A stretch of 62,908 nt of DNA, filler included, from Eremomyces bilateralis CBS 781.70 (taxonomy: Eukaryota): the NCBI GenBank assembly GCA_010015585.1. It is 4 parts of 3 records of this genome, joined end to end, with 100 filler letters (N's around TTAATTAATTAA, not from the genome) between each part and the next. Parts side by side here need not be neighbours in the genome. Positions count along the whole stretch, not along the records: positions 28,830 to 54,869 come from ML975201.1; positions 54,970 to 62,908 come from ML975214.1; 2 more parts are not named here. One strand, 5' to 3'. The position numbers and the translations under genes were made by a program. Each line of letters begins with the position of its first letter. Position 1 is the stretch's first letter. Below the pieces are notes generated by a model that had not been told where the DNA came from, did no database searches, and saw only the letters and a list, made by a program, of their open reading frames with translations. Of this stretch, positions 54,191 to 62,908 are shown one piece after another.

Positions 54191-55856
54191 GCCACTGACT
54201 GTAATTTAACAGGAATAGACCAAGTGAAAAACGGAAGTATAAGCTCTGTAGCCTAAGAGATTTGTTGAGGAGACTGTGTGACCGGAGGAATAGAGGAAGC
54301 GTGATTCTGACTAGGAAGTTCATTTATATCCCATTTGATTCCGGAATGACAATCAGATCGCACGAGTCCATCTCGACAAGCCTAACGACCTTAATATTCC
54401 ATGATTTTAGCTAAAGCTCTTGGCAAACGTCGTCGCGTTTTCAGTGAACGATTCGATGTGGAGATGAGATGCTGTGTGGAGAAGAGACACCGTGCCTGCT
54501 GGTCCTAAAGCAACTTAACGAGATTTTGGTGCGAGCAGAGCTCAGGACCAGAGGTTAGTCCGCGAGGGAACCGGTTCTTCCGGTCCAGAAGCGAGAATAT
54601 TACATTTACGGATGATAGGGCATAACTTACCAAGATTTGCTCTAACGTTCCCGAGTATGAAGGTATTCCGTAAGGCTTAGTGGATGATCATGTTCGCTGA
54701 TAGCAGTCATACAAACAGGGCGAAAGAGAAACGGGCATAGGTTTCAATCTTATCGTAGGCCCGAACCCTAGGTGCCGAGGTCTCCGCACCTGCGGTCAAC
54801 TGCCTACGATAATAGATATCCATTTCTTTGCAAATTGAAGGCCGCGTAACAAAGATTATACCATATCGTNNNNNNNNNNNNNNNNNNNNNNNNNNNNNNN
54901 NNNNNNNNNNNNNTTAATTAATTAANNNNNNNNNNNNNNNNNNNNNNNNNNNNNNNNNNNNNNNNNNNNTGGCGTAAGGATGTCATGAATGCCAGGAGGT
55001 AGGAATAGCATTGACTCCAGTCTATGCTCAAATTTAATACTGTGTTTAGAAGAAGTAATCTGTTTCCTGTACTTGTTGTATTGACTCTTGACCATCTGCT
55101 CAATCCTTCTAACAACACGTAGCAAGTCGCCTCTTGAAGACATAAGGTGGTCCTTCAAAACCCTATGCATTCCTTCAACAGGAGAGGTTGTAACTATATT
55201 ATAGTGTCGATGCTGAGACGTCCAAGCAGCTGCCCACTCGGTACGTGTATGCCATTGATTATCACGTAAGTATTGGCAAAGTTCTCGCTGGTCGGCATAG
55301 TCTTTGAGTAACTCGTCCCACTTTAGCGTAAATGTAAGTGGACTCTTTGTATAGATAAGCTGCTCCAGTCAGTTCTATGAAAAACTTATAAGAGGTATTC
55401 CCGGAAGCCTTCCGGTAACGCCTCTTAGGCCATTGGTGGGGAGCATACCTGACTCCAACGTTTCATAAATTGAGCCCGGTGCTCAGCGATTCTCTGCTTC
55501 TCCTCTTTTGTTACACTATCAGCGTCTCGCCAGGTCTTTTAAGCCTTTGTCTGCATATTCTTATTAATATGCCATATGCACAGGAGTTGTGGGATATCTG
55601 GAAACAGAGTGCGAGCTGCTAGTTTTACCGCATCCTCCTGATCGCTGATAAACACGCGTGGCTGCGGTGTCCCTGTATTAAGGAGGAAGTTTGAGATTGC
55701 CTAATGGTAATCTGTCGAAACTAGCCAACTACGCTAAATCCCCAAAAGGGACGCCCCCCCAGGAATCTAGGAGAAGGGCAGATATAGCTTCTTTTTGACA
55801 CACCCCGGCAGATCCGTGGCTAATAGCAAGGGGATCTGGAGAATAACCGAGCGCCT

Positions 55857-55975
55857 GAGAGTGACGCTGGCCCTTTGGTCGTAGAGAGTGACGCTGGCTG
55901 TTGGTCGCGAAGAGGGACGCTAGCCGTGGTCGTAGAGAGTGACGCTGGCTGGTCGTAGGCGGTGACGCTGGCTAT
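55857..55975. repeat. Degenerate tandem repeat GAGAGTGACGCTGGC..TGGTCGTA (about 5 copies) in the mini-element
   Basis: Direct copies visible. Confidence 0.85.
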
Positions 55976-61198: not shown

Positions 61199-62908
61199 AG
61201 TGAAAAGAGTTGTAGGAGGACGGTTCCTAAGAGGTAGGAATCGAGACTCGTACGACGACGTGTCAGAGGACCGTCAGAGGTCGGAGGAGGACGTTGCTTT
61301 AAGGAACAACGGTCCGGATTGAGTTCAATGGGAAAGCTGATATAGAGATCGAGCTTTAAGGCAAATTGGGCTCATAACTGTCGAAACTAGCCAACTACGC
61401 TAAATCCCCAAAAGGGACGCCCCCCCAGGAATCTAGGAGAAGGGCAGATATAGCTTCTTTTTGACATAATCTGCTTCTTTCTCGCTGCGGAGGAAGCAGA
61501 ACCCTGCAGAGAAGAATGTCTGTAGATTGGTACAGCCGAGTATGTGCAACAGTGGGAGTTTGTACTTGTTGGTTCGGTACGTACAGTCCATCAACAGGAT
61601 ATCGGGATTTGCAAGCAGTAGCTCAATCTGCTTCTGGTGGGCAAAGAAGAGACCTTGTACGTGATTATCCGCATCCTTCTTGACAGTAAAGACCCATTCC
61701 GGCGTAGACAGGTCATCTAACAATGTCTTAATCGGACTCCTCCCATTTAAGTGCTTCTCTCTGATTGCCTTCCTCTCGCCGCGAATATCGGTAGCAGATA
61801 CTAGGGTGTCTGGATCCTCCTTTTGAATAGCAGCCATTATCTACATCGGCCGTACCCCGGCATGCGTCATTGATTCAATTGTGTCTTTCTGTGCTAATGT
61901 ACGCTTGCGATAGACATTATGCGCACTGGGGTTAAGTGACCGGGGATGGTTGTGATGCTTGTGTAGAACCTCCAGCTTCCACTGGTCGTCGCTTTTGTTC
62001 TTAAATATACTAAGCCTAAAAGGACACCCTATTGAGCGTGTGCTTGTACTCAGATTCTTTGCTCTTGACTAATAGTTTCCGGATCGATTACAGTAGTAGT
62101 AATATCGTGTCTTAACATTGGAATTGTGAGGTCTACTCCGGTTGAGTAGGAAGCCGTAGCCATGCTGCATGCCATGGCCCTTGAGAGCATTGTAGGCTTC
62201 TTCATAGGATACGTAAAGGCAATCTGGGGGGGGAGCGATATCCTCCATGCTAAAATCTGTAAGAGAAGGAATGTGAGAAAACAGCGGTTCCTGTGGTCTA
62301 TAAGACACGTCACAGCAGGAGAGCTCTGTGTTTGACCAAGAATTGAGACATTGATTGATCTTGTTCCTAATAAGCATAAAAGCTTTGGGAATACGCCCAT
62401 ATTTAAGTTCTGTATACAATTGATGGCCACGGAGACCTTGATTTCCTCAAACCGAGCGAAAAAGCAAAGAATGAGGGGTTGGTAACATCGCGGGATGCGT
62501 GATGCGCTGTCATGATTGGGAACACGGGGTCTATACCACCTAAATACGAGCAAGAAATGGGGGTCACGGGTAGGAAACCGGAAAACGCCGAAAAACAAAG
62601 ATATCCCGAAAACCTGATCTCTGGCAAGAAACACCTCCATGCGGAGATTGTGAGAGAAAGACCAGATTGAACATTGAAGTTGTCTGCAGAAGAAGATATA
62701 TGGAAATACGCACTAGGCTCAGTTGAGCGATTAATTTCTACTAAACAAGAGCTGGTGGGAAAATCTCAAATGGTGGGAAAATCTCAAAACCTGGTGGGAA
62801 AATCTCACCAGCCAACAATAAGAGGATGATGCGAAATACGATTCTCCAGGCCGGGCAGGACTGTCAGGTAAAACGTGGGACAGGGACAAGGCTTCCCCAG
62901 TTCCCATC

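Follow-up and report, generated by a model that had tools for sequence, protein, structure and literature searches.

Retrotransposons of the long terminal repeat (LTR) class with three LTRs within a single target-site duplication (TSD) are known from grasses, where the Angela, Squiq, and Opie copia complexes, each with one 5-bp TSD, have been attributed to template switching (Sabot and Schulman 2007, PMC1950507); they are read there as products of a single reverse transcription that used two copackaged RNAs and of a single integration, in a model in which the R regions of both RNAs pair and chimeric LTRs are predicted. Single-TSD three-LTR complexes are reported from rice as well, in the accessible part of a preprint (bioRxiv 10.1101/452573). 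Here, we describe a composite copia element at positions 55713-61466 of a 62,908-nucleotide stretch from the genome of the fungus Eremomyces bilateralis CBS 781.70 (GenBank assembly GCA_010015585.1); this whole stretch is referred to as the window, and all positions count along it. [quoted passage not shown] However, the grass complexes consist of one LTR family with both halves complete, whereas here the middle LTR bears no relation to the outer two, one half is noncoding, and the host is a fungus.

[quoted passage not shown] As far as the available portions of the respective papers describe them, plants contain tandem TRIM arrays (L3I2 and other forms; Gao et al. 2016, PMC4717578), arrays of three-LTR form being common (PMC4717578 and PMC11899658), and TRIM-08 chimeras of sugar beet carry an extra LTR from TRIM-01 or TRIM-05 (PMC13570524). 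The likeness lies in small nonautonomous elements that take a three-LTR form, often with their TSDs kept, and, in sugar beet, in an extra LTR that can be foreign. Yet the TRIM chimeras join nonautonomous families and are all from plants, and the portions available describe no intact gag-pol partner within the same TSD. A third comparison is LTR swapping between autonomous and nonautonomous elements (Du et al. 2010, as cited in PMC6894440): heterologous copackaging and interfamily recombinants are reviewed in the accessible part of PMC6894440, and BARE2 and VejuL are named as interfamily recombinants in PMC1950507. As in LTR swapping, the exchange proposed below takes place between helper and parasite at the level of reverse transcription after heterologous copackaging; as far as the available text goes, though, the products of swapping are two-LTR mosaics, while here both parents are whole and stand in series. 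In yeast, multimeric arrays of the copia-type element Ty1 run head to tail with single LTRs between units of the same family. Our element shares with these arrays the fungal host and the head-to-tail order and differs from them in that their units belong to one family. Finally, the Helenus and TRIMp3 elements (Kojima 2024, PMC10886601) are TRIM-sized, have 5-bp TSDs, and hold a tRNA-like sequence within the LTR, with all fungal cases in the accessible part of that work coming from basidiomycetes. The smaller half of our element is similar in its TRIM size, its 5-bp TSD, and its box-A-like and box-B-type motifs on the sense strand; tRNA-derived sequence within the LTR, which defines Helenus and TRIMp3 in the part available, is not what we find, the motifs being split between LTR and core.

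In a literature search that extended to few subscription journals and to no supplements, we came across no account of an autonomous element fused, within a single TSD, to a nonautonomous one from another LTR family, and of no such complex from a fungus. What sets this locus apart is the combination, namely, an intact autonomous and a nonautonomous element with unrelated LTRs, in series, within one TSD, in a fungus; as such it is a rare variant of a known retrotransposon accident. The original prediction for this locus, made before any database search, had placed it further from known biology than this, given that single-TSD three-LTR complexes (PMC1950507) and, in the accessible part of PMC13570524, foreign-LTR TRIM chimeras are already in print.

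A three-LTR element in a split MULE transposase

The element measures 5754 bp and reads, on the minus strand, LTR88-PBS-gag-pol-PPT-LTR206-PBS-core-PPT-LTR88, where the numbers give the LTR lengths in base pairs. Its features and those of the Mutator-like element (MULE) around it are, in the order of the element's sense strand:

61472..62640, minus strand: upstream part of the host MULE copy; its match to Pfam MULE profile positions 1-43 stops at the junction
61467..61471, no strand: TSD copy TAATC at the 5' flank of the element, whose sense strand is minus
61379..61466, minus strand: 5' LTR88, 88 bp, TGTC...GACA, identical to the 3' copy, with a TATA-like motif at LTR position 15
61366..61378, minus strand: PBS 1, 13 nt, abutting LTR88
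61199..61365, minus strand: 5' untranslated leader, 167 nt
56414..61198, minus strand: intact gag-pol open reading frame (ORF), 1594 amino acids, Ty1/copia domain order
56333..56413, minus strand: 3' untranslated region (UTR), 81 nt, terminating in the purine tract PPT 1
56127..56332, minus strand: middle LTR206, 206 bp, TGTCAA...ACA, between PPT and PBS
56114..56126, minus strand: PBS 2, same sequence as PBS 1, abutting LTR206
55801..56113, minus strand: noncoding core with a tandem array and a box-B-type motif, terminating in PPT 2 (55801-55814)
55713..55800, minus strand: 3' LTR88, identical to the 5' copy
55708..55712, no strand: TSD copy TAATC on the 3' side of the element
54970..55707, minus strand: downstream part of the host MULE, degenerate and of high summed depth, with Pfam MULE profile positions 55-99

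This order of three LTRs, two PBSs, two PPTs, and an intact gag-pol had been predicted and is borne out by the sequence, as is the identity of the outer LTRs (55713-55800 and 61379-61466), which is 100% over 88/88 bp. Both inner junctions are canonical, with PPT 1 running directly into the TG of LTR206 and its terminal CA directly into PBS 2; there is a single copy of LTR206, and no inner TSD was found at it. An inner element with two LTRs and a TSD of its own, by which a nested insertion is recognized, is thus not what the locus holds.

The polyprotein contains the Pfam domains Pol_BBD (residues 379-451), gag_pre-integrs (509-567), rve (583-681), SH3_retrovirus (746-815), RVT_2 (1104-1336), and RVT_3 (1442-1545), the matches to rve, gag_pre-integrs, and RVT_3 scoring under the Pfam curated cutoff. 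The domain order, the direct terminal repeats of the TG...CA type, the PBS, the PPT, and the 5-bp TSD all agree with membership in Ty1/copia. The core block including PBS 2 (55801-56126) comprises 326 bp, in which a 26-nt unit is repeated 4.6 times (55857-55972) and no ORF of at least 80 amino acids was found. TRIMs are under 1 kb and noncoding, with two LTRs, PBS, and PPT; combined as LTR88, core, and LTR88, the smaller half would amount to 502 bp with PBS, PPT, and again no ORF of at least 80 amino acids, and one contig joint in one sample suggests that such a form exists on its own. No similarity was found between the core and the leader (61199..61365); the last ~35 nt of the core resemble, as judged by eye, the end of the gag-pol 3' UTR, as would be expected if the mini-element descended from a related copia.

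The host of the insertion is a MULE transposase domain, which matches Pfam MULE profile positions 1-43 before the element and 55-99 after it in the same frame. To that extent the frame resumes across the element as predicted; however, an in-frame TAG lies 3 codons past the junction and a second stop farther on, which makes this MULE copy degenerate. Its paralogs proved informative in the public sequencing runs, which we consulted as Logan contigs. Three runs cover the stretch (X1, X2, and X3), X3 coming from a different sample and study and covering the 3' half of the composite; such contigs show presence, not absence. Several contigs of paralogous MULE copies join 55706-55710 to 61466-61470 and skip exactly 5759 bp. 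Given that this equals the 5754-bp element plus one TSD copy, the limits of the element are fixed independently, in agreement with the single TSD TAATC (55708-55712 and 61467-61471) already noticed in the prediction. A lone TSD, identity of the outer LTRs, and empty sites that skip 5759 bp are together best explained by integration of the 5754 bp as one unit. Another reading, that of a canonical element in which one of two 620-bp LTRs, the 5' one, had been truncated, is ruled out by the TSD that abuts the TG of the 88-bp repeat and by empty sites that match 5754 bp. The 100% LTR identity limits the age of the insertion weakly, the LTRs being just 88 bp, and dinucleotide indices revealed no signature of repeat-induced point mutation (RIP) in the composite or its neighbors, so that RIP gives no dating either.

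LTR206 and the signals shared by the two halves

To compare LTRs, local alignment scores were set against those of 300 shuffles. LTR206 and LTR88 reach a score of 15 against a shuffle mean of 14.8, a value matched by 142/300 shuffles and hence at chance level, which confirms that the middle LTR is foreign to the outer pair. Its predicted kinship to two other sequences in the window stood up equally well. Compared with a 185-bp solo LTR at 10233-10417, LTR206 scores 61 (shuffles, 16.5 +/- 2.3; 0/300 as high) with identity in 108/173 aligned columns, and compared with a 54-bp piece at 5720-5773 it scores 41 (shuffles, 14.3 +/- 2.3; again 0/300). The solo LTR lies on the minus strand, has its own TSD (TCTGT at 10418-10422 and 10228-10232), and sits in another repeat beside one of the two other copia elements of the window. 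Since both the 5' and the 3' parts of LTR206 align to it, LTR206 is a natural whole LTR and not a U3/U5 chimera produced by this event. Three contigs in X2 align inward from boundary 56127 with differing sequence outside, and in X1 the summed depth reaches ~13,000 in the bin containing the bulk of LTR206, about 50-fold above the 200-300 of the zero-difference contigs for this copy. High depth, contigs with other flanks at 56127, and a solo relative with its own TSD together establish that LTR206 is a genuine, abundant LTR family and that 56127 is a real LTR end.

Several details accompany this family. The piece at 5720-5773 (plus strand) keeps the TGTCGG start and the ...ATCAACA end and lacks the middle, with no clean TSD seen, and the repeat that hosts the solo LTR has an empty paralogous copy near 5590 (about 5560-5700), inverted and ~4.7 kb off. 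At position 56237, the present copy has A where 14 X1 contigs have C (depth ~14,700 of 14,977). Within LTR206, a 32-bp unit is repeated 2.4 times (56239-56315, minus strand); each unit of this U3-like part has a TTAGTCA-type motif, and a TATA-like stretch follows. The TTAGTCA-type motifs resemble AP-1/bZIP sites.

The two PBS junctions share 16 identical bp and the two PPT junctions 18/20, figures that the original prediction had given exactly. Their interpretation as marks of the fusion did not survive, because the same signals occur at other elements of the window. The 16-mer of the PBS junctions is found exactly at 56114, 61366, and 5095 and with one mismatch at 15747, and the 13-nt PBS (at most 1 mismatch) is present at 5/5 LTR-PBS junctions in the window: the two in the composite and one each in the copia elements at 1-5514 and 10513-15900 and in a nonautonomous element at 51256-52876. 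Similarly, the 20-mers at the PPT-LTR junctions agree at 18/20 positions within the composite and at 16/20 and 15/20 with the first of the copia elements, despite a polyprotein identity of just 24-42% between that element and the composite. Shared PBS and PPT are, from these sequence comparisons, cis signals of the copia clade and not scars of this event. They matter mechanistically all the same, as the sole sequences common to both halves. Drosophila copia and yeast Ty5 have a PBS of this type, which is complementary to the anticodon arm of the initiator-Met tRNA.

Joining of the two halves

The junction between core and LTR206 is covered by contigs of all three runs. With 0 differences in every case, contigs of 373 nt (X1 and X2) cover 55771-56143 and a 466-nt contig of X3 covers 55678-56143. 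Their path leads from the 3' LTR88 through PPT, core, and PBS into 17 nt of LTR206, the X3 contig beginning in the MULE flank. While 17 nt is less than the 31 nt we otherwise asked of a bridging contig, the shared PBS is just 13 nt long, so that reads linking the core with the end of LTR206 must underlie these contigs. In all three runs they stop at 56143, which is where a 31-mer loses its last core-specific base. From this we infer that the word made of the PBS and 18 nt of LTR206 is continued in two ways in the genome, the second being what a canonical LTR206-PBS-leader junction would give. The 3' half of the composite is thus backed by an independent sample in addition to the assembly, and the 5' junction by the assembly only. 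One contig each in X1 and X2 joins position 56085 of the core to 61366, the PBS beside LTR88, via 24 other letters (shorter side, 43 nt), with a single-copy-like depth of 168 in X1 and 150 in X2. This contig implies another locus with LTR88-PBS, a diverged start, and core-like sequence, without gag-pol or LTR206, and a mini-element devoid of gag-pol therefore probably exists.

Depth differs strongly between the parts. In X1, the gag-pol bins lie at about 500-2,300, with variant contigs at 90-99% identity, LTR88 lies at ~1,100 (at 61419), and the core-rich bin lies at 545, so that LTR206 far exceeds gag-pol, which exceeds LTR88, which in turn equals or exceeds the core. The zero-difference contig over LTR88-PPT-core-PBS has a depth of 204 in X1 and 146.5 in X2. 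Given this order, the data fit an abundant LTR206 element that owns the multicopy gag-pol and a rare LTR88 element, and with the core junction contig at single-copy-like depth, the composite itself seems not to have been amplified.

We propose, at a little over an even chance, that the composite arose in a single aberrant round of reverse transcription, in which minus-strand DNA finished on the RNA of the mini-element was primed onward at the PBS of a copackaged LTR206-copia RNA, followed by one integration. The two parents would be E88, a nonautonomous mini-element of ~0.5 kb with the structure LTR88-PBS-core-PPT-LTR88, and E206, an autonomous Ty1/copia with the structure LTR206-PBS-gag-pol-PPT-LTR206, whose RNAs would share one virus-like particle, as those of parasite and helper must. 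Minus-strand synthesis on E88 RNA would proceed normally through strong stop, R88 transfer, U3, PPT, core, and PBS. The finished strand would then carry the PBS complement at its 3' end, a sequence shared with the 3' end of the primer, and could anneal to the identical PBS on E206 RNA and prime there like a tRNA fragment. From that point, U5-R of LTR206 would be copied, followed by an ordinary R206 transfer and by U3, PPT, gag-pol, and PBS. Plus-strand strong-stop DNA (LTR88 plus PBS) from the outermost PPT would transfer to the last PBS, yielding a product with two identical LTR88 ends for integrase, the integration of which gives a 5-bp TSD. A transfer of plus-strand strong-stop DNA in trans at the shared PBS would be an equivalent variant. 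The PBS-primed path would need one abnormal step only, all later steps being normal.

Several features of the locus follow from a join at the PBS during reverse transcription. It accounts for exact junctions and nonchimeric LTRs, and it fits the identity of the outer LTRs, both of which reverse transcription makes from one template. The R-R pairing model of PMC1950507 was examined for this locus and is ruled out, LTR88 and LTR206 being unrelated and LTR206 nonchimeric; with unrelated LTRs an R-R switch has no substrate, which leaves the identical PBS as the sole candidate joint. The original prediction of a mini-element fused to a copia and integrated as a unit is therefore retained as the best explanation of the TSD, the LTRs, and the PBS join, without the recombination of 1-LTR circles that it had also offered and to which nothing points.

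Other observations weigh against this proposal. X1 and X2 share a sample and could be the very data behind the assembly, in which case they are not independent of it, and summed contig depth is not copy number, the values above serving as an ordering alone. Stand-alone E88 is seen in one contig from one sample, and the first 24 letters after its PBS differ from the core. Among the contigs listed, none bridges the LTR88-PBS-leader junction (61378/61379) or the PPT-LTR206 junction (56332/56333), and none shows the joint LTR206-PBS-leader-gag-pol, so that the canonical E206 parent is deduced. The assembly is a draft with N gaps, one of its linkers lying 750 bp from the element. Copackaging, the PBS-primed step, and read-through of LTR206 are each proposals. 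In the searches made alongside, no joint of gag-pol-PPT to LTR88 (55800 to 56333) was present among the contigs listed; no contig of a further run with the same species label (X4) matched the stretch, which is not proof of absence; and a 20-mer made of the LTR206 end and PBS turned up 2 loci in metagenomes that were dismissed as chance matches (23 nt of similarity, no tblastn match to gag-pol).

Alternatively, the composite layout might predate the insertion, an ancestral fusion replicating via read-through RNA and the present copy being an ordinary daughter. Identical outer LTRs and an intact gag-pol are what any fresh daughter of a composite parent would show, and the layout is compatible with replication, as internal PBS and PPT presumably need not disturb reverse transcription. 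We nevertheless consider this origin unlikely. The LTR88-PPT-core-PBS contig is single-copy-like (204 in X1, 146.5 in X2) where gag-pol and LTR206 are much deeper, a second set of composite junctions is absent among the joints listed, and the only other core-like copy among them adjoins LTR88-PBS and not LTR206.

The polarity of the fusion could also be the opposite one, with gag-pol belonging to an autonomous E88 into which a passenger, LTR206-PBS-core, was spliced by two PPT switches and an extra strong-stop transfer. Here, the PPT junctions, alike at 18/20 positions, would offer a substrate for PPT-based switching, and the absence of the LTR206-PBS-leader joint among those listed is in line with it. 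However, two switches are needed instead of one, LTR88 (~1,100 in X1 at 61419) is not deep enough to bound several gag-pol copies, and the core, at about 200-550, falls far below LTR206 at ~13,000. Under this polarity, many cores would be predicted, along with LTR88 copies no fewer than gag-pol ends, which is the reverse of the depths found. Together with the contig that joins LTR88-PBS to core-like sequence, this makes the opposite polarity quite improbable.

Still less credit is due to an assembly artifact, in which a short-read assembler would have threaded a mini-element at the MULE site through a copia copy from elsewhere. That gag-pol, LTR206, and MULE are multicopy, that the window comes from a draft containing runs of N, with one linker at 54870-54969, and that the assembly may itself derive from X1 and X2 would all permit such an error. 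On the other hand, the halves share just 13-19 nt, which is below usual assembly word sizes; zero-difference contigs that lead from the core across the PBS into LTR206 occur in three runs, including X3, whose sample and study are different and which adds MULE flank and the whole 3' LTR88; and there is no N within 54970-62908. Least credible of all are DNA-level events after integration. In one such path, E206 would have inserted into an E88 already in place, with the first 5 nt of its PBS as the target (masking the inner TSD), and the 5' LTR206 would then have been lost by a 5-bp microhomology deletion; ectopic recombination or gene conversion are alternatives. The insertion path is compatible with the observed letters, and nested insertions are common in the window (e.g., the solo LTR 10233-10417 with its own TSD), but it requires a one-nucleotide-exact insertion plus an exact deletion, where reverse transcription gives both junctions by construction. 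Under PBS-primed joining, one outer TSD and identity of the outer LTRs call for nothing further to be assumed.

Related elements, Pol III-type motifs, and significance

The nonautonomous element at 51256-52876 (plus strand) mentioned above is 1.6 kb long and has 140-bp LTRs of 99% identity, the 13-nt PBS found in the composite, a PPT, a TSD (TAGTA at 51251-51255 and 52877-52881), and no ORF of at least 120 amino acids. Its core contains 56-nt and 38-nt tandem repeats, four of each, and a 10-N gap (52555-52564) between two identical 52-nt copies that looks like an assembly stutter. Copia-type nonautonomous elements that share this PBS and have an ORF-less, repeat-rich core are thus indeed present in the genome. 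The copia elements at 1-5514 and 10513-15900 (both minus strand) belong to other families, with polyproteins 24-42% and 35% identical to that of the composite, and have the same PBS and similar PPTs; they are cut by assembly gaps or the window edge. Runs of N around a short TTAATTAATTAA linker at 15902-16001, 28730-28829, and 54870-54969 mark the window as contigs strung together, so that adjacency across these linkers is not genomic evidence.

The mini-element half contains motifs of the type used by RNA polymerase III (Pol III). Both patterns are consensus motifs, and their co-location was noticed post hoc. The box-B pattern has its sole window match in the core, on the sense strand (56061-56071, minus), where 0.19 matches are expected and 19/100 shuffles contain at least one. 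The box-A-like pattern falls at LTR88 positions 65-76 (55725-55736 and 61391-61402, minus), which accounts for 2/3 of its window matches (expected, 0.65). In an LTR88-PBS-core arrangement, the starts of the two motifs would be 79 nt apart, and no T4 run was found between the box A/B motifs and the TTTT at position 54 of the 3' LTR88. ARAGORN predicted 0 tRNA genes in the window, and Rfam gave 0 matches at E values up to 1 in 55600-61600. The motifs may point to a Pol III-type TRIM in an ascomycete or may reflect chance.

As to the fate of the composite, an RNA that starts in the 5' LTR88 and ends in LTR206 would be a gag-pol mRNA without matching R ends, and an RNA starting in LTR206 would be mismatched likewise. 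Only a read-through RNA from LTR88 to LTR88 could replicate the composite, which would now encode its own gag-pol under E88 ends. It is tempting to speculate, as a long shot, that a parasitic mini-element gained its helper's whole gag-pol and one helper LTR in one PBS-primed concatenation and so became autonomous under an 88-bp LTR, with either partner still able to be shed via the internal PBS, PPT, and LTR and with E88 perhaps an ascomycete TRIM of the Pol III type. If this were true, it would constitute a direct path from satellite to self-sufficient element. In the usual three-LTR complexes, which consist of one family, the joint cannot be located, whereas the unrelated LTRs of this element point to the PBS. 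The structure thereby gives a concrete, testable mechanism for the concatenation of copackaged helper and parasite RNAs, and if the composite is transcribed through LTR206, it would be a natural case of a nonautonomous element that regained coding capacity in one step.

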